Shown here in pieces: positions 17,090-58,590 of a stretch of DNA of 64,000 bases. The translations under genes were made by a program, and so were the position numbers. This DNA comes from Leucoraja erinacea (taxonomy: Eukaryota): assembly GCF_028641065.1 (NCBI RefSeq), contig NC_073410.1:558001-622000 (forward strand). Reading direction: 5' to 3'. Within the stretch, counting starts at the first letter, position 1. The number at the start of each line of letters is the position of its first letter. Under the pieces are notes generated by a model. The model was not told the DNA's origin, searched no databases, and saw only the letters and a program-made list of their open reading frames with translations.

Positions 17090-17797
17090 CAACTGTAGAC
17101 CGGTTTAAAACGAAGGAAGACACAGAATGCTGGAGGAACTCAGCGGGCCAGGCAGCATCTGTGGAGAGAAGGAATGGGTGATGTTTCAGGTCGAGACCCT
17201 TCTTCAGACTGATGTCAATGGAGGGGGCGGGACAGAGATAGAATGTAGTCGGAGACAGTAAGAACTGTGATGGGATGCTGCCTGACCCGCTGAGTTACTC
17301 CAGCACTCTGTGAAACGTCACCTATCCATGTTCTCCACAGATGCTGCCTGACCCGCTGAGTTACTCCAGCACTCTGTGACACGTCACCTAACCATGTTCT
17401 CCACAGATGCTGCCTGTCCCACTGAGTTATTCCAGCACTCTGTGAAACGTCACCTATCCATGTTAGAGTTTGATAGAGCTCTAGGGGTTAGTGGAATCAA
17501 GGGATATGGGGAGAAGGTAGGCACGGATTATTGATTGGGAACGATCAGCCATGATCACAATGAATGGCGGTGCTAGCTCGAAGGGCCGAATGGCCTCCTC
17601 CTGCACCTATTTTCTATGTTTCCACATATGCTGCCTGATCCGCTGAGTTACTCCAGCACTCTGTGAAACGTCACCTATCCATGTTCTCCACAGATGCTGC
17701 CTGACCCGCTGAGTTACTCCAGCACTCTGTGAAACGTCACCTATCCATGTTCTCCACAGATGCTGCCCGACCCGCTGAGTTACTCCAGCACTGTGTC
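17090..17797. mobile_element. Composite: Penelope-derived unit (minus, ~17090-17260), 66-bp tandem arrays (17274-17462, 17627-17797) and a nested CR1 3' end (17463-17620, plus)
   Basis: Repeated unit gatgctgcctgacccgctgagttactccagcactctgtgaaacgtcacctatccatgttctccaca; CR1 tail gaagggccgaatggcctcctcctgcacctattttctatgtt. Confidence 0.85.
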
Positions 17798-23969: not shown

Positions 23970-24225
23970 CAGGGAGATGGTCAAGGCTGGTCAGGGAGAG
24001 GGTCAAGACTGGCCAGGGGAGGGGGTCAAGGCTGGCCAGTGGAGATGGTCAAGGCTGGCCAGGGGAGGGGGTCAAGGCTGGCAAGTGGAGAGGGTCAAGG
24101 CTGGTCAGGGGAGAGGGTCAAGGCTGGTCAGGGGAGAGGGTCAAGGCTGGCCAGGGGAGATGGTCAAGGCTGGCAAGGGGAGAGGGTCAAGGCTGGTCAG
24201 GGGAGAGGGTCAAGGCTGGCCAGTG
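23970..24225 (+). repeat. 23-bp minisatellite (GGTCAAGGCTGGTCAGGGGAGAG), about 11 copies
   Basis: gtcaagg recurs at 24071, 24094, 24117 and so on. Confidence 0.9.
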
Positions 24226-30595: not shown

Positions 30596-30925
30596 CTGCC
30601 CACTCACACCTGGCATCATGCCCTCACCCATAACACCAGGTGTGTAGGTGCTGCCCCCTCACCTGGCATCGTGCCCTCACCAATACCACCAGGTGTGCAG
30701 ATGCTTCCCCCTCACCTGGCATTGTGCCCTCACCAATACCACCAGGTGTGTAGGTGCTGCCCCCTCACCTGGCATTGTGCCCTCACCCATAACGCCAGGT
30801 GTGTAGATGCTGCCCCCTCACCTGGCATTGTGCCCTCACCAATACCACCAGGTGTGTAGATGCTGCCCACTCACCTGGCATCATGCCCTCACCAATACCA
30901 CCAGGTGTGTAGATGCTGCCCACTC
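30596..30925 (+). repeat. 53-bp minisatellite, 6 units, each with an internal inverted repeat CACCTGG...CCAGGTG
   Basis: CACCTGG at 30607, 30660, 30713, 30766, 30819 and 30872 (exact 53-bp period). Confidence 0.95.
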
Positions 30926-34439: not shown

Positions 34440-34692
34440 GGGAGCTGCAGATGCTGGTTTACAAGAAAAGCACAAAGTGCTGGAGTAACTCAGCGGGTCA
34501 GGCAGCATCTGTGGAGAACATGGATAGGTGACGTTTCACAGAGTGCTGGAGTAGCTCAGTGGGTCAGGCAGCATCTGTGGAGAACATGGATAGGTGACGT
34601 TTCACAAAGTGCTGGAGTAACTCAGTGGGTCAAGCAGCATCTGTGGAGAACATGGATAGGTGACGTTTTAGGTTGGGGCCCTTCTTCAGACC
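34440..34692 (-). mobile_element. Penelope-derived element with degenerate hammerhead and 3 x 66-bp tandem units
   Basis: gtgctggagtaactcagcgggtcaggcagcatctgtggagaacatggataggtgacgtttcaca repeated, ending cccttcttcagacc. Confidence 0.85.
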
Positions 34693-36921: not shown

Positions 36922-37093
36922 GTACAGGAACAGGAACTGCAGATGGTTTAAACAAAAGTTAGATACAAAATGCTGAAGTAACTCAGTGGGTCTGAAGGTT
37001 CTGAAGAAGGGTCTCGAGCCGAAACGTCACCCATTCCTTCTCTCCAGAGATGCTGCCTGTCCCGCTGAGTCACTCCGCTTTTTGTGTCTATCC
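36922..37093. mobile_element. Palindromic Penelope-derived element with hammerhead core at 37001-37028 (plus)
   Basis: CTGAAGAagggtctcgagccGAAACGTC. Flanks tcacgatcctgt (36910-36921) and tcaggatcctgt (37094-37105) look like a TSD. Confidence 0.75.
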
Positions 37094-37483
37094 TCAGGAT
37101 CCTGTACAGGGTGACTAAGATATCTAGCACCATTCCACAGGCAGGCAAGGGGAGTGGTCAAACATCAAAAAATGCTGCCTGTCTGTGCATTAGTTTATCA
37201 CCTTCCCCACTCCAGGCTGAAGCGCATGTGCAGAGCATGCAGTTTGTTTCATCCGCAGTGCTAATACTCAGTATTTATTCCCTCGTCAAAGTGCATCTGG
37301 ATTTACAATTGTGACTAGTGGGCAATGTGCTGGCCATCCCGATCAATGCTTGGCATCCTGCATCCCATTCCATCGCCAATCATGCCTTTCATGTGAACAG
37401 GGCGGGACCGGTTTAATGCACTTGCTTAAATCCTGCGTTATTGCTCCCTGAGAACCCAACATAAAACAACATGCTTTGTACTT

Positions 37484-37794
37484 AGTCTGTGAAGTTCAGA
37501 TTGAAGAAGGGTCCCGACCCAAAACATCACCTATCCATGTTCTCCACAGATGCTGCCTGACCCGCTGAGTTACTCCAGCACTCTGTGAAACGTCACCTAT
37601 CCATGTTCTCCGCAGAGGCTGCCTGACCCGCTGAGTTACTCCAGCACTCTGTGAAACGTCACCTATCCATGTTCTCCACAGATGCTGCCTGACCCGCTGA
37701 GTTACTCCAGCACTCTGTGAAACGTCACCTATCCATGTTCTCCACAGATGCTGCCTGACCAGCTGAGTTACTCCAGCACTCTGTGTCTTTCTTT
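37484..37794 (+). mobile_element. Penelope-derived element: degenerate hammerhead + ~4 x 66-bp units, flanked by a 13-bp TSD
   Basis: ATGCTTTGTACTT at 37471-37483 and 37795-37807; units start at 37549, 37615, 37681 and 37747. Confidence 0.85.
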
Positions 37795-40477
37795 ATGCTT
37801 TGTACTTCACTTTGACTGCAGCGAGCCAACATTGATGCAAGGAGAGCGATATGGTCACTGTGGGATAACAAGACCAGAACTGCTGTGACGCTAAACACAA
37901 TGCTGTGAATGTTGGGCCCAGCAGATACATGGCAAGTTTAATCTGAGCCTGTCCTCCTGACCTGTGGCATCAGGATAGAAGAAGCAAGGTGAACATTTCC
38001 AGCAGTTTTGTAAACAGGCCGACTGCACTTTGATTTCCTCACTGCCCAATTATACACTTTACAATTCACAGGAAATCAAGGAAATGCTTTTAACTTAATT
38101 TTGCCCTTCATCTCTCAATGAAGCTTTCAGGGTCCTTATTAATTGGGAACAGATAACAGCTATCAAGTTGTTGAGATCTGCCCTGCTGTATCCAGTTGTT
38201 GCCCTGGTGAATCCCGCCACAGTCTTTAATAAAGGCAGACTATTTGATTAATTTTAACTTGCAGCAAAAATCAGATGCAGTATCCTGTCAAATGATTACA
38301 CAGAAGCCAGACGCCAGGTACAAGAGTTTAAGCAGGAGTTGTTTCTCAGAAATTAAAGGATCAGATGGCTGTCAGGATGTGTACAGGAAGCCAAGGTTAC
38401 TCTGACCTAACTCCTGCAGTTAATAAGACCATGAACTCTGTGACTGATTAAGACCTCACATTCTCCTCCACAGTCAACATCGCCAGGGTTTACTTGTCAT
38501 CTGTACCGGCAACAGACAATGCAATTATTACACTGCAGTTTCATAGGCTCATGAACACAATGACACACAAATAAACCTACAATAATTACTAATACAATAA
38601 TTAAATATCAGATGCTGACCCCCCCCCCCCCCCCCCCCCCATTGAAGGGATCTACAGGAGGCGCTGCTTGGCTTCCAAGACCCACAACACCCTGGCCACG
38701 CTCTCATCTTACTAGATCATTGGGGGGAAGGTACAGGAGCCAGTGCTCTTGAACTCTGTACAACATTAACCTCACAAACCCCCTGCCCCCCTAAATCATA
38801 TCACATTATCTTTCTCCTCACTGTTTCTCTCTCTATTAATGGGCAATATTAGCTGTGTGGGGTGGTAATGTTCAATGTAACCTGTGGATCACTCGAGAGT
38901 CTAAGGGGAGAGAGAGAGAGAATGGGATTGGGTGGGCAGTGTGGAGTGGATGACAGGCACATTGAGATGCTCATCTCAGCTCTGAAATGATTCATAAAAA
39001 TTAGTACTACATGAAATGGCAGAGGGTGGCACCAGCAATGGCAGCCTCGCCAACAGTCTGTCTGTCCCTTCCTTCCTTGTGTTTTAATAGTATGTGTTAA
39101 ATGTATGTTTTTAGTGTTCTTTAGCTTGTTTTATGCGGGTTGGGGGAAACTTTTTCTAATCGCTTACCTCGATGGAGATGCAATTTTCCCTGTACCTTAA
39201 TTAGTAAAAAACCTTTGAAACCTTTAAAACCTTTGAATTGGCAACAGTTAAAAGGGAATTTAAAGATCTTTGTTTCACAAAACAATAGTTTAGTAATTTT
39301 CCAATTAATTGCACAAATGCTGGCAAAGGCGTCTGATAGAAAGAGGCTGTTGGATAAGTGATTCTGATGCATGAGTTCAGATCCAACCACACAGCGTGGG
39401 ATTCAAAGTCAACAAATTAATTAATTAAATCTGGAGCAAACATCAAGTTTCTAGGGTGGTGCAGCAGTAGAGTTGCTGTCCACACTCTAGCTCAGCACTC
39501 TGCTACTGAACCCAGGCTCCCTGACATAGGCCATCACCGTGACCAGACTCAGTCAGAGCTGCGAGTGCAGTCATCGCAGCTGTCCAAAGATCCAAGAACT
39601 GGAAACCCAACACTGACAATTTATGAATGACCAAGGTTGAATTTGTCAACAGAGAAAAACGCCAATCGTGAGATTTCTTCCAAAACAACATCATCATTCG
39701 TAGCATTTGGTGTGGTTACTTCTTCTCTGAATCACGTCAATTGTTTCACAATAAATCTTGACTGGGAAATGCATTTAAATGGTTGCAGATAGACACTTTA
39801 CAACAGAACAATTAGTGGGTAGGGGCTCAGCCAGATGCGTTGGCAATGCGCTCATTGCTCCAAGCCAAGGCTCGGTTCCATACAGCCCATGAAGCAGAGA
39901 CTGATCTCTTGCTGTCAGATTGGAGGGACACACTATCTTCAGGGGAGTAATCACATGGGGAGTCTGGTTACTGAGACACACTGACTAGTAATTTGTATTA
40001 GTTTGTATCCGTTTAGTGTTCCGAGCTATCGTAAATTATCAACTCTTGTTGTGTTCCATCCAGTCAGCATAATACATGATTACAATCCAGCCATCCACAG
40101 TACACAGATACAGAATAAAGGGAATAATGCTTAGTGCAAGGTAAAGTCTAGGGAATTCTGATTGAAGATAGTCTGATGGCCCTCAATGAGGTGGGTGGTA
40201 GCTCAGGGCTGCTCTGTTGATGAGAGAATGGTTCAGATGTAGTCACCACTGCATTGATGGGGATGAGTGCAACAATTCAATGGCAGTAATCCATTCTCAA
40301 CCCTTCTCAATAGACACCTCAATACATGTGTCTAGTATAGAAGTGTTTAACCCCCAGCCTCCTGACTCTTGCAACACCAAACAATGGAGTTTCATGGTCC
40401 TAGGGATCAGATTACCAAGAGTTGTTTCCTTGGAGCTGATGAGACCTGGAGATCTCATCCCATCCCACCCCCAGAGA

Positions 40478-43919: not shown

Positions 43920-44510
43920 GGAGCTGAAGAAAGGTCTCAACCCGAAACGTCACTTCTCCATGTTCTCCACAGATGCTGCCTGACCCGCTGAGTTATGGTG
44001 CAGCAGCATCTATGGAGCTAAGGAAATAGGCAACGTTTCGGGCCGAAACCCTTCTGGAAATAGGCAACGTTTCGGGCCGAAACCCGGAAGGGTTTCGGCC
44101 CGAAACGTTGCCTATTTCCTTAGCTCCATAGATGCTGCCTGACCCTCTGAGTTACTCCAGCACTCTGTGAAACGTCACCTATCCATGTTCTCCACAGATG
44201 CTGCCTGACCCGCTGAGTTACTCCAGCACTCTGTGAAACGTCACCTATCCATGTTCTCCACAGATGCTGCCTGACCCACTGAGTTACTCCAGCACTCTGT
44301 GAAACGTCACCTATCCATGTTCTCCACAGATGCTGCCTGACCCGCTGAGTTACTCCAGCATCTTGTGGACAATGTGGCTTGTTATGTTGGCCCATCAGTC
44401 TCTCTGAGATAGACAGAAGTGCTGGAGAAACTCAGCGGGTGCAGCAGCATCTATGGAGCGAAGGAAGGAAATTGGCAACGTTTCGGGCCGAAACCCTTCT
44501 TCAGACTAGG
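43920..44510. mobile_element. Composite of subfamily A and B hammerhead elements: palindromic B core (~44000-44138), 66-bp array (44131-44360), intact minus-strand hammerhead (44477-44504)
   Basis: gcagcatctatggagctaaggaaataggcaacgtttcgggccgaaaccc...gggtttcggcccgaaacgttgcctatttccttagctccatagatgctgc; the same architecture recurs at 58245-58590. Confidence 0.85.
44477..44504 (-). ncRNA. Minimal type-I hammerhead ribozyme motif (intact core, subfamily B)
   Basis: CUGAAGA-A-GGGU(UUCG)GCCC-GAAA-CGUU. Confidence 0.65.
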
Positions 44511-45399: not shown

Positions 45400-45750
45400 T
45401 GTGTAGGGGAAGGAACTCGGAGATACTGGTTTAAACCGAAGATAGAGACAAAAAGCTGGAGTAACTCAGCGGGTCAGGCAGCATCTCTGGAGGGAAGAAA
45501 TAGGTGATTTTCCGGGTCGAGACCCTTCTTGGATCTGAATTGTCACCTATCCATGTTCTCCACAGATGCTGCCTGACCCGCGGACTCCAGCACTCTGTGA
45601 AACGTCACCTATCCATGTTCTCCACAGATGCTGCCTGACCCGCGGAGTTACTCCAGCACTCTGTGAAACGTCACCTATCCATGTTCTCCACAGATGCTGC
45701 CTGACCCGCTGAGTTACTCCACATATGCTGCTGGACCCGCTGAGTTACTC
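45400..45750. mobile_element. Penelope-derived unit (minus) followed by an inverted 66-bp tandem array
   Basis: gtgtaggggaaggaact...gggtcgagacccttctt, then gtcacctatccatgttctccacagatgctgcctgaccc x3. Confidence 0.8.
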
Positions 45751-46471
45751 TATCGCTTTGTCTCCCCTCTCAGATCAGATTCAGTGCTTTGCTGTGCGTT
45801 GCCCCTGCTCACTCCATCAACAGTCAGTTGACTGGTGCTGGGGGGCATGGGATTCTGCATTCATAGCGGGTGAAGTCAATAGCCAGATCCAATTGTCCTT
45901 TCATGGACACTGCATAGTATGTACATTAGTGTTGCCACTGGCTTTGTTTTCATTAACTGTATTATCAGATAATTATCCCCCTTCAAAGTCACTGATGTCC
46001 ACATTTGTAAAGGTCTGCACACACATTCCTGAAGGTCCCTTAAATATAATCAGCTCTACGCTTTGATAGTCTGCTGATTCCAATTACATCATTCATTTAT
46101 CATCTGCTAATGGTTATCTTTATGGCATCAGCCATCTGGTTTCTTTTTACCACTTTATTAGAATTATTGTAAACATTTTCTTCTTACTGATTGGGATTGG
46201 GTTTGAAAATGCCATAAATTAGAGAGGAACCGCTCACAATGTTTCTACATCCGCTTGCAGCTGGCTCTGCCGCCTGTAACCTGCTGACTAAAACATTCTG
46301 TGCAGCTTCTTAAATGCCCCAGAGACACTGAGTCACATCAGCACGTTGTGTGTGAACATTGGTGCCCACCACATGCCCCCTAACAGGGCATAAACCTTTG
46401 CCCCCGTTACAACCTCATCCTTAAGCAGCTGGGCATCATGTGACACAGTGCACAACATGTTTGTCGTGGGG

Positions 46472-46715
46472 GTAGACACAAGGAACTGTAGATGCTGGGA
46501 CACACAGTAACTCAGCGGGTCAGTGCATCTGTGGAGTGGATAGGTGACAGCGGGTAACAGGGGTCAGCAGCATCTGTGGAGAACATGGATAGGTGACGTG
46601 TAACTCAGGGGTCAGGCAGCATCTGTGGAGAACATGGATAGGTGACGTTTCACAGAGTGCTGGAGTAACTCAGTGGGTCAGGCAGCATCTGGGAGAACAT
46701 GGATAGGTGACTTTC
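46472..46715 (-). mobile_element. Degenerate 66-bp-type array
   Basis: taactcagcgggtcag...gcatctgtggagaacatggataggtgac repeated with deletions. Confidence 0.75.
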
Positions 46716-47005: not shown

Positions 47006-47187
47006 ACACACAAAATGCTGGAATAACTCAGTGGGCCGGGCAGCATCTCTGAAGAAAAGGAATAGGTGAAGTTTCGGGTTGAGATTCTTCGTCAGTCTGA
47101 AGAAGGGTCTCGACTCGATACATCACCTGTTCCCTTTCCCCAGAGATGCTGCCTGACCCGCTGAGTTCCTCCAGCTTTTTGTGTCTA
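47006..47187. mobile_element. Palindromic Penelope-derived element with 14-bp TSD (1 mismatch)
   Basis: TTCATGGAAGTTAT 46992-47005 and TTCGTGGAAGTTAT 47188-47201; inverted arms are centred on the hammerhead remnants near 47090. Confidence 0.8.
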
Positions 47188-50477: not shown

Positions 50478-50968
50478 ACCCATGTCGTATGTAGAATCCA
50501 TGTAGTATGTAGAACCCATGTAGTATTTAGTGCCCATGTGGTATGTAGTACATACCCATGTAGTATGTAGTACCCATGTAGTATGTAGAACCCATGTAGT
50601 ACATACCCATGTAGTATGTAGAACCCATGTAGTATGTAGAACCAATGTAGTATGTAGTACCCATGTAGTATGTAGTACCCATGTAGTATGTAGAACCCAT
50701 GTAGTATGTAGTGCCCATGTAGTATGTAGTGCATACCCATGTAGTATGTAGTACCCATGTAGTATGTAGAACCCATGTAGTATGTAGTACCCATGTAGTA
50801 TGTAGTGCCCATGTAGTATGTAGTACATACCCATGTAGTATGTAGTACATACCCATGTAGTATGTAGTACCCATGTAGTATGTAGTAGTACATACCCATG
50901 TAGTATGTAGAACCCATGTAGTATGTAGCACATACCCATGTAGTATGTAGTACATACCCATGTAGTAT
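50478..50968 (+). repeat. 18/22-bp minisatellite (CCCATGTAGTATGTAGTA[CATA])
   Basis: About 25 copies. Confidence 0.95.
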
Positions 50969-51734
50969 GATTTGACCAGACAGCACAAAGGAGGCTTTTC
51001 ACTGTGTCTCAGTACACATGACAAGAACCAATACCAATACTTATTGATTATGACATGGAGATGGAAAAAGAATGGAACGTAATTTCCAGAAGGAATAGAA
51101 CATGCAGATACGAGGAACTGCAGTTGTTGGAATCTTGAGTGAAACACAAAGTGCTGGAGTAACTCAGTGCATCAGGCAGCATCCATGCAGCCCATGGATA
51201 GGTGACGTTTCAGGTCAGAACAAATGTGAGGAACGGCATTCTCTGTGGTTTCCCATGCCAATAAATGCAGGATTTCTTCTGAGAGAGGATTTTAGTTCAT
51301 GAGTAGAGGTTTCGATGAGGAATCTTGGCCATGTACTGAGAGTTGTGCTAAACACATCTTGAGTTCTTTGCCACCAAGGCGTTGTTGTTCTTCTCTGGAT
51401 TATGAAAATAAAGAGCTAATGTGGTAATATCTCATGATAGCAATTAACTGATGTAGCAAATGTCATGGTTAACAGTTTTAGATAAACAACCTATCGTGGC
51501 CATACAAAGACCTGCTGTTCCTGCATTAAACTTGTTGGTGTGTTCCGCATCAGCCCAGTGTTGCCAGCTAACTATCCGCTTCAGCAGATCAGCAATTAAT
51601 GCACAGAAGACCATGGTCTTTCTGTCTCTGAATCTCTGACCCAACTTGCCTAGTGACAGAATATTTGTCAAAGTTAATTTGATGGCAAAACATTCCTTGT
51701 TGTTCATTTGTTCAGACAGAAGGAGCAATAACTC

Positions 51735-52084: not shown

Positions 52085-52500
52085 CTGTTGCAATGGTGCA
52101 GGGATGTTGCAATGGTATAAAGTATGTTGCAATAGTGCAGGGATTGTTCCAATAGTATAAAGTATGTTGCAATGGTGCAGGGATTGTTGCAATAGTATAG
52201 TATGTTGCAATGATGCAGGGATTGTTCCAATGGTGCAGGGATTGTTGCAATGGTGCAGGGATTGTTCCAATGGTATAGTATGTTGCAATGGTGCAGGGAT
52301 TGTTCCAATAGTATAGTATGTTGCAATGGTGCAGGGATTGTTGCAATAGTATAGTATGTTGCAATGGTGCAGGGATTGTTGCAATAGTATAGTATGTTGC
52401 AATGGTGCAGGGATTGTTGCAATAGTATAGTATGTTGCAATGGTGCAGGGATTGTTGCAATGGTATAAAGTATGTTGCAATGGTGCAGGGATTGTAGCAA
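52085..52500 (+). repeat. 38-bp minisatellite built from 20- and 18-bp GTTGCAAT subunits
   Basis: gttgcaatggtgcagggatt-gttgcaatagtatagtat, period 38 (52320, 52358, 52396). Confidence 0.9.
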
Positions 52501-53017
52501 TAGTGCGGCGACGTTACAGTAGTATTGTCCCAGATTCCAGCCACCCTGGAGTAAAATGATTCCCTTTCATCGGTTAAATGGCTTGTAAAGCTGCAGCAAG
52601 TAAGAATTTCATTGTTCCGCTGCTGAGAACAGAACAATTAAATACTCCACTCTCAAAGAAACAGTTAGAACAACGGTAAATAAAAACAGAACTCTGGTGG
52701 AATCCTTCCAAGGCTATCAATGACATTTGAATTAAGGAGTCTGGATAAGGAGATTGTTGTTAATTCAATGTAGTTTAGTTTAGTTTATTGTCACAGGTAC
52801 CGAGGTGTAAGTGAAAAGCTTTTGTTGCGTGCTAACCAGTCAGCGGAAAGACAATACATGATTAAAATCAAGCCCTCCATAGTGTACAGATACAGGATAA
52901 AGGGAATAATGTTCAGTGCAAGATAAAATCCAGTGAAGTTCGATTAAAGATAGTTGTAGGGTGAGGTAGATAGTAGCTCTAAGCTGCTATATCTTGTTTC
53001 CCTCTCCCCACACTGTC

Positions 53018-55026: not shown

Positions 55027-55240
55027 GTAGACACAAAAAGCTAGAGTAACTCAGCGAGTCAGACAACATCTCTGGTGGAAAGGAATGGGTGACGTTTTGG
55101 GTCTTCTTCAGAAGAAGGGTCTCGACCTGAAACGTCACCTATTCCTTTTCTCCAGAGGTGGTGCCTGACCCGCTGAGTTCCTCCAGCTTTTTGTGTCTAT
55201 CTTTGGTTTAAACCAGCAACTGCAGTTCCTTCCTACACAT
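55027..55240. mobile_element. Palindromic Penelope-derived element
   Basis: Arms are centred on tcttcttcagaagaag (~55102-55117); possible TSD ttcattgccagttg / ttaattcccagttg. Confidence 0.8.
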
Positions 55241-58239: not shown

Positions 58240-58590
58240 ATGGACAAAAATGCTGGAGAAACTCTGAGTTATGGTGCAGCAGCATCTATGGAGCTAAGGA
58301 AATAGGCAACGTTTCGGGCCGAACCTTCTGGAAATAGGCAACGTTTCGGGCCGAAACCCGGAAGGGTTTCGACCCGAAACGTTACCTATTTCCTTAGCTC
58401 CACAGATGCTGCCTGACCCGCTGAGTTACTCCAGCACTCTGTGAAACGTAACCTATCCATGTTCTCCACAGATGCTGCCTGACCCGCTGAGTTACTCCAG
58501 CACTCTGTGCAGCAGTTCTCCACAGATGCTGCCGACCCATGGAGCGAAGGAAATAGGCAACGTTTCGGGCCAAAACCCTTCTTCAGACTG
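58240..58590. mobile_element. Composite subfamily A/B hammerhead element inserted into the Rex1-like copy; intact minus-strand hammerhead at 58559-58586
   Basis: Same architecture as 43990-44200; CTGAAGAagggt(tttg)gcccGAAACGTT. Confidence 0.8.

Follow-up and report, generated by a model that had tools for sequence, protein, structure and literature searches.

A 66-bp minisatellite from the end of a Penelope-like element in Leucoraja erinacea and its probable spread into older element copies by gene conversion

Tandem arrays of a 66-bp unit are found at several separate places in a stretch of 64,000 nucleotides of the genome of Leucoraja erinacea, and the question raised by this locus is how the same junction between units came to lie in all of them. 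The stretch, referred to here as the window (G000:C34:558001-622000), is located about 0.6 Mb from the start of the 19.9-Mb contig C34; the genome, G000, comprises 2.19 Gb. The first-pass annotation had offered three readings, namely repeats cleavable by a hammerhead ribozyme, products of rolling-circle reverse transcription of a 66-nt circle, and a single ancestral duplication that was later mobilised. The sample used for the comparisons below comprised 1,461,500 bases, with 591 solo cores and 154 first, 184 internal and 128 last array units. In this sample, 33 stretches of contig C2 and most of those of C8-C16 were picked on known matches, and densities there are not unbiased.

The arrays of the window and their host element

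The window contains dozens of single related copies of about 90-130 bp each. In another stretch of the genome (L117), the same head is preceded, at a distance of about 90 nt, by a GIY-YIG reading frame (E 9e-7, over the cut-off), and since the head follows the end of the GIY-YIG coding region directly, the host of the arrays was identified as the pLTR end of a Penelope-like retrotransposon. Four subfamilies of host copies, A, B, B2 and C, were distinguished. The CUGANGA box, an extra base, stem II, GAAA and a palindromic ACGU are present in the majority sequences of all four, matching the layout of the minimal hammerhead of Penelope-like elements in the accessible text of PMC4209133; a search of the window with Rfam gave no match at the gathering score.

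Host copies showed the features of retrotransposed insertions, both in their target-site duplications and in their genome-wide spread. Duplications of 10-18 bp were found around 61 of 544 solo clusters (0.4-0.5% in a shuffled control). Exact matches in the genome amounted to 32,141 for B, 25,184 for C and 517 for A, spread along whole contigs, and the first 100 listed of the B matches occupy 6.9 Mb of C1, which corresponds to the genome-average density. Copies on both strands were observed in 128 of the 544 solo clusters, so that head-to-head inverted pLTR pairs are common (in the window at 36965-37076, 47009-47183, 55032-55195 and others), as expected if both target strands are primed.

An intact frame with reverse transcriptase (RT) and GIY-YIG domains is present in the genome. 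Frames of 759 amino acids with both domains and identical scores were observed at the start of C23 and at the ends of C37 and C39 (L111-L113), the first of them followed by CCCTAA repeats and an 18-bp satellite. They belong to a telomere-associated, endonuclease-bearing, Penelope-like element with an end unlike the host pLTR described here.

At the locus that had been flagged, TRF reported 4.0 copies at 37522-37785 with 96% matches. The perfect 13-bp duplication said to enclose the array was recovered as an exact repeat; it does not surround the units alone, since the enclosed sequence also includes a spacer of 16 bp, the hammerhead head and the tail of the host (Table 1). It was likely generated when the host copy first inserted. 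In two related organisms, contigs are continuous from the left flank of this duplication into the head, and they contain the flanks and host ends at both 34.5 and 37.5 kb, breaking inside the repeat. The CUGAAGA box of the head is altered in its first base, at 37501.

The other arrays were detected by TRF at 17274-17464, 17616-17796, 34471-34668 (minus strand), 44124-44360 and 45542-45721, and two more were added by BLAST, at 46506-46710 (minus strand, mostly decayed 49-bp pieces) and 58361-58538. All eight places of the first-pass annotation, with their one junction, were thus present. They represent seven loci and not eight, because the two left-most segments are a single array interrupted by another repeat, of which a fragment of about 155 bp is left, presumably LINE-like. 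This array adjoins an inverted B-type pLTR copy at 17121-17273. The C-type block of the composite locus consists of two inverted pieces and one direct piece, at about 43996-44130. The window is rich in tandem repeats, with long C-rich tracts, and also contains unrelated minisatellites at 30607-30925 (53 bp), 23972-24223 (23 bp), 50478-50969 (18 bp) and 52086-52506 (38 bp).

Table 1. Features of the flagged locus and the remaining 66-bp arrays of the window.
Feature	Position	Strand	Basis
Left copy of the 13-bp target-site duplication	37471..37483	+	Exact match to 37795-37807
Spacer of 16 bp, then old Penelope pLTR head with stem II and a decayed CUGAAGA box	37484..37520	+	Comparison with subfamily majority sequences
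Unit 1, host-derived start and array-type remainder	37521..37586	+	Core changes at 37521 and 37526
Units 2 and 3, young	37587..37718	+	2 and 0 differences from the common unit
Unit 4, then a short T-rich tail	37719..37794	+	Sequence; the four units together occupy 37521-37784
Right copy of the 13-bp duplication	37795..37807	+	Exact repeat
Single array (about six units), interrupted by another repeat at about 17465-17620	17274..17796	+	TRF, BLAST
Old A-type head, three units, long host tail	34471..34688	-	TRF, BLAST
Composite: head and part of a unit, C-type block, then four units	43925..44360	+	BLAST
Three units plus a fragment; a B-type copy adjoins head to head in inverted orientation	45455..45761	+	TRF, BLAST
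Two units, then decayed 49-bp pieces	46506..46710	-	TRF, BLAST
C-type block, then two units (composite class)	58361..58538	+	BLAST

One seam in host copies of different subfamilies

The common seam of the 66-bp arrays joins CTCTGT to GAAACG, and its position is certain only to within one base because G is present on both sides in the parent. A 23-mer spanning the seam has 18,764 exact copies in the genome (reversed control, 0), which, at about 2.0-2.2 exact seams per locus, corresponds to 8,600-9,500 loci (about 9,000). Arrays contained from 1 to 8 seams in the 160 loci sampled, and 283 of about 340 close core spacings were exactly 66 bp. The 163 full internal units differed by a mean of 1.8% from one sequence, with 44 identical to it. 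Pairs of units differed by 1.60 bases within an array and by 2.33 between arrays, and this excess of identity indicates a little local duplication after insertion. The predicted DNA fold of the unit (-7.5 kcal/mol) is stronger than those of the host types (-3.3 to -4.8), and its two marker bases are complementary and would strengthen the hairpin. No description of the 66-bp repeat was found in the literature.

The first units of the arrays are chimeras, with a start as decayed as that of solo copies and an array-type remainder. The CpG at unit positions 5-6 had survived in 20 of 30 first units behind A heads and in 7 of 12 behind B heads, similar to the solos (A 6/13, B 104/157; p=0.31 and 0.55) and different from the internal units (164/184; p=0.003 and 0.010). 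At positions 45-60, on the other hand, first units showed a difference of 0.5%. All 184 internal units were of A type, including those that follow a B or C head. Among B heads, 10 of 12 carried the array base at position 40, against 38 of 172 solos, and in 33 C heads the switch to the array type fell in three different intervals, always in register. The subfamily nearest the unit accounted for 70 of 89 typed non-composite first units and for 55 of 373 typed solos, an excess of A heads part of which may be due to B hosts converted from early in the unit and hence scored as A. Of 161 array segments, 124 extended back beyond the unit start, either into a head or into one more decayed unit, and the other 37 reached no head. 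Long tails were present in 9 of 115 complete arrays, a small number in the comparison of head and tail types.

Target-site duplications surrounded 3 of 130 array clusters, compared with 61 of 544 solo clusters (p=7.5e-4), and 24 of the 18,764 seams lay on the largest contig, neither of which is the pattern of a retrotransposed unit. The proposal of a single ancestral duplication held for the seam, which traces to one such event, and failed for the mobilisation of whole arrays. Old heads of several subfamilies, varying in-register switch points and monomer paralogs argue against the array having moved as one element.

These monomer paralogs come from C2:25.60-25.67 Mb, where about 40 kb are tandemly duplicated and the copies are 93-96% alike. 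Nine paired host clusters were sampled there. Seven were solo in both copies, in two an array was paired with a monomer, and no pair consisted of two arrays. In the two array/monomer pairs, arrays thus lie where a homologous host is present, the host head and private tail being preserved and whole units added (three and one). The monomers have five differences (52 bp; unit positions 12-26) that are absent from both end units of the arrays, with a Poisson p of 0.001-0.004 at 1.5-2% per lineage, which favours a gain of units over a collapse of the array, judging from the sequences compared. Flank divergence was 1.4-1.9% in one pair and 4% and 11% in the other. The direction of change rests on these two pairs, and formally an array may also have collapsed to a monomer. 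Another tandem segmental duplication, with a spacing of about 7.5 kb, was observed at G000:C34:626-646 kb; both duplications are 93-98% alike.

Distribution of the arrays and sharing of flanks

The arrays are distributed very unevenly. On the 170-Mb contig C1, the 24 seams found contrast with about 1,450 expected by length. A composite form, consisting of an array, a block of C-type pieces and a second array, has 1,468 exact seams in the genome; the 100 of these that were listed lie on C1, C5 and C7-C11, all at 6.8 Mb or less from a contig end, and none of them on C2-C4 or C6. A composite sub-variant with two private changes (373 copies) followed the same pattern on at least eight contigs, so that long jumps are needed too. 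The clustering of two composite variants at fine scale on C8 was not found (40 runs, 42 expected, p=0.34). Two loci of that contig, L181 and L183 (C8:0.41 and 1.02 Mb), contain repeats of the composite as a whole at a spacing of 225 bp, and share 236 bp of one flank at a distance of 610 kb.

That every chromosome has one array-rich end was considered and discarded, since in 5 of 10 small contigs neither terminal stretch of 20 kb contained an array. On four array-rich contigs, the 80 kb covered at the opposite ends were free of seams, but contained only 8 host cores. Two patches of arrays are interior, one on C2 from 23.9 Mb, with a sharp left edge, and one on C1 at 134.7-138.8 Mb, indicating that proximity to telomeres is not the entire rule. 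Composites were found in 0 of 61 segments of the C2 patch against 30 of 99 at four contig ends (p=1e-7), and the older base at unit position 27 in 24 of 119 units of that patch against 6 of 191 elsewhere in the comparison. These data suggest that the C2 patch is an earlier wave, perhaps at a chromosome end that has since fused; in frogs, according to the accessible part of PMC10794172, a leftover signal of this type marks fused ends. Remote from the other arrays, a diverged array at C1:10.16 Mb (L001) has two alternating unit types that form a local higher-order repeat of 132 bp.

A second lineage, with a 54-bp unit, occupies the C1 patch. Its seam joins CTCTGTGTC to CATGTT and leaves out GAAACGUC entirely. 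Among 20 stretches, 17 such arrays were found, in which heads of types A, B and C are followed by 2-6 units. The seam has 112 exact matches, at least 100 of them in C1:134.66-138.76 Mb, an interval of 4.1 Mb (0.19% of the genome) that lies 31-35 Mb from the contig end. The 100 seams listed represent 87 loci on both strands, with a median gap of 20 kb. Segmental duplication was rejected as the source of this patch, because the flanks were unrelated in 190 of 190 locus pairs tested, none having long near-identical flanks. The two left-most 54-bp loci have a private variant in common, and three 66-bp arrays lie in or beside the interval. A search of the literature for a tandem seam restricted to one chromosome interval inside dispersed retroelements yielded none.

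Some neighbouring 66-bp arrays share more than their units. In five pairs, with distances of 1.5, 10, 13, 39 and 40 kb between the arrays, one flank is 95-98% alike over 60-320 bp and the other is unshared; four pairs are on opposite strands, and in two the shared flank is the upstream one. Such one-sided sharing was detected in 5 of 431 array pairs less than 50 kb apart and in 3 of 12,289 distant pairs. At one locus, the left side is common with one neighbour and the right side with another. Run-on copying into the flank would leave few target-site duplications intact, in line with the 3 arrays of 130 that kept theirs. Among solos, local flank sharing is due to segmental duplication, as 18 of 19 pairs lay within duplications.

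Routes of spread and comparison with known systems

The 66-bp arrays are not a ribozyme system. The first-pass annotation was right that the units retain just the 3' half of a hammerhead. This hammerhead is of the minimal Penelope type, and neither its CUGANGA box nor its stem II is present in the unit. The two RNA readings built on this, substrate-only repeats cleavable in cis or in trans and rolling-circle copying of a 66-nt RNA circle, both meet the same obstacles: the heads are mostly dead, and the 54-bp sister lineage, which lacks GAAACGUC, has the same architecture, so that placement of the seam at GAAA is not needed. The head at the 37.5-kb locus has three catalytic-core changes (37501, 37521 and 37526), and the core was still intact in 52 of 252 solo heads but in only 1 of the 48 array heads scored (p=7e-4). 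Cleavage of a unit by an intact head, in cis or in trans, is chemically conceivable and was set aside given the state of the heads; in the predicted fold of two units, ACGU is buried in a local hairpin. Classification of the arrays as a non-LTR retrozyme was likewise dismissed, as no unit contains a whole hammerhead and only that single head of 48 is intact. Four raw-read RNA runs (polyA, oligo-dT and single-cell libraries, types unable to reveal a 66-nt circle) yielded reads at family level from both strands, with no reads on the flanks of the 37.5-kb locus and no pile-up of ends, which is no evidence either way. Nothing new on hammerhead catalysis is to be learned from these arrays.

We consider it probable (roughly 75%) that a 66-bp minisatellite derived from a Penelope-like end spreads by short-range ectopic gene conversion into older copies of that end. 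One tandem duplication in an A-type pLTR copy would have created the seam. A break in or beside a host copy would then be repaired from an array located on either strand at a distance of 1-40 kb, through strand invasion, synthesis over one or more seams and re-annealing in register, with the host head and tail kept. Alternatively, synthesis would run into the donor flank and end by microhomology or in another repeat, in which case the target-site duplication would be lost and the flank shared. New patches would be seeded by rarer jumps between chromosome ends, the composite and other later variants would spread by the same route, and slippage or unequal exchange would then slightly alter the number of units. 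Such a process would require no RNA, ribozyme or protein of its own; candidate sources of breaks are meiosis, replication and the Penelope endonuclease. Strand invasion, the source of the breaks and any gain bias are parts of the model that we infer from sequence comparison.

Other routes explain parts of these data. DNA circles excised from arrays might re-enter host copies by a single homologous crossover, a route put forward for Rsp-like satellites in the accessible text of PMC7403614, and this would account for the in-register gain of whole units beside a preserved head and tail that the two paralog pairs show; it would not readily copy 60-320 bp of donor flank on one side or explain the restriction of the 54-bp lineage to 4.1 Mb, and a clean crossover would not be expected to lose target-site duplications, so that we regard it as unlikely. 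Still less probable is reverse transcription of array RNA by a Penelope protein, with the cDNA joining or recombining with older pLTR copies, the rolling-circle version included. The host family is indeed a Penelope end with real target-site duplications, an intact RT and GIY-YIG frame and family RNA were detected, and the Penelope protein of an anole cleaves its own pLTR junction in vitro (PMC11167929, accessible part). Ordinary copies made by that machinery are, however, evenly spread, whereas the arrays are patchy, upstream flanks are co-copied, the partners are neighbours and the 54-bp lineage stays within its interval; besides, a 66-nt circle yields no heads, composites or flanks.

A master element with head and array, retrotransposed whole and later altered in unit number by slippage, would fit the one seam, the recurrent composite with its shared private changes, some sharing of variants within arrays and the clean duplication around the 37.5-kb locus. 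It was already largely refuted by heads that are as old as solos and belong to several subfamilies, by the rarity of duplications, by the monomer paralogs and by the patchy distribution, and it is very improbable. Independent 66-bp duplications at each locus, arising at a slippage-prone spot in regions of high recombination, can call on the stronger fold of the unit and on the reading given for a 52-bp minisatellite of frogs in the part of PMC10794172 available. They are scarcely credible here, since all internal units are of A type even behind B and C heads, most close spacings are exactly 66 bp and a different seam prevails in the C1 patch.

Beyond short-range gene conversion itself, we put forward tentatively, as a possibility that is doubtful at present, that this is a selfish repeat free of protein and RNA: a seam in an abundant dead retrotransposon that would advance like a wave through neighbouring copies, favoured by an inherent gain bias and possibly fed by the Penelope endonuclease. 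In this view, the 54-bp lineage would be an outbreak at the 4-Mb stage, the 66-bp lineage would have become pandemic by jumping between chromosome ends, and the C2 patch would be a dated fossil of a former end.

The route of short satellites to new loci, whether by RNA, DNA circles or gene conversion, is debated, usually on a few dozen loci. With thousands of dated events, paralog pairs, co-copied flanks and the 54-bp lineage, ectopic conversion between dispersed repeats becomes measurable in a vertebrate in its range, rate and direction. Old transposon copies in array zones would be rewritten by their neighbours, which would bias the dating of repeats, and layers of variants may mark former chromosome ends.

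Minisatellites derived from transposable elements near chromosome ends are a known kind, and the present arrays share their features, with a unit from an evenly spread retroelement and enrichment near some ends; evidence of a local outbreak was not found in print. In Xenopus, part of a retroelement end (SINE/tRNA-V, 52 bp) is likewise tandem only near chromosome ends (PMC10794172; 10.1101/2021.10.18.464293, accessible parts), and in the first of these texts it is read as the product of local unequal crossing over. Here, in contrast, the parent is a Penelope pLTR, one seam enters hosts of other subfamilies, and monomer paralogs, shared flanks and a confined second lineage are present. The squamate SINE-derived satellites (sSats) are similar in their short arrays of a SINE portion, their subtelomeric bias and their evenly spread parent; they differ in the parent, and the available text of PMC10702118 contains no gene-conversion test and does not trace spread between loci.

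The minimal hammerheads of Penelope-like elements and the non-LTR retrozymes also have pLTR-derived tandem units and the same head layout (PMC4209133; 10.64898/2026.07.22.740005, accessible parts). According to the portion of the latter source available, multimers in Xenopus are enriched at chromosome ends, the supplements include one cartilaginous fish, and retrozymes carry a whole hammerhead per unit; the 66-bp units carry none and hence fall outside that definition.

A parallel in mode of spread is the invasion of 1.688 by Rsp-like in the Drosophila simulans clade, for which the accessible text of PMC7403614 describes a rare junction that seeds arrays at homologous host repeats, higher-order units that move together, and conversion or circles as proposed routes. 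The marks of such homology-seeded invasion were also found here, namely a shared junction, a variable other end and higher-order units that travel together. There, as far as that text goes, the host is another satellite, on one chromosome and in tens of clusters, whereas here it is a dispersed retrotransposon end, with thousands of loci and a short range, and the evidence for neighbour-to-neighbour spread of a minisatellite is unusually clear.
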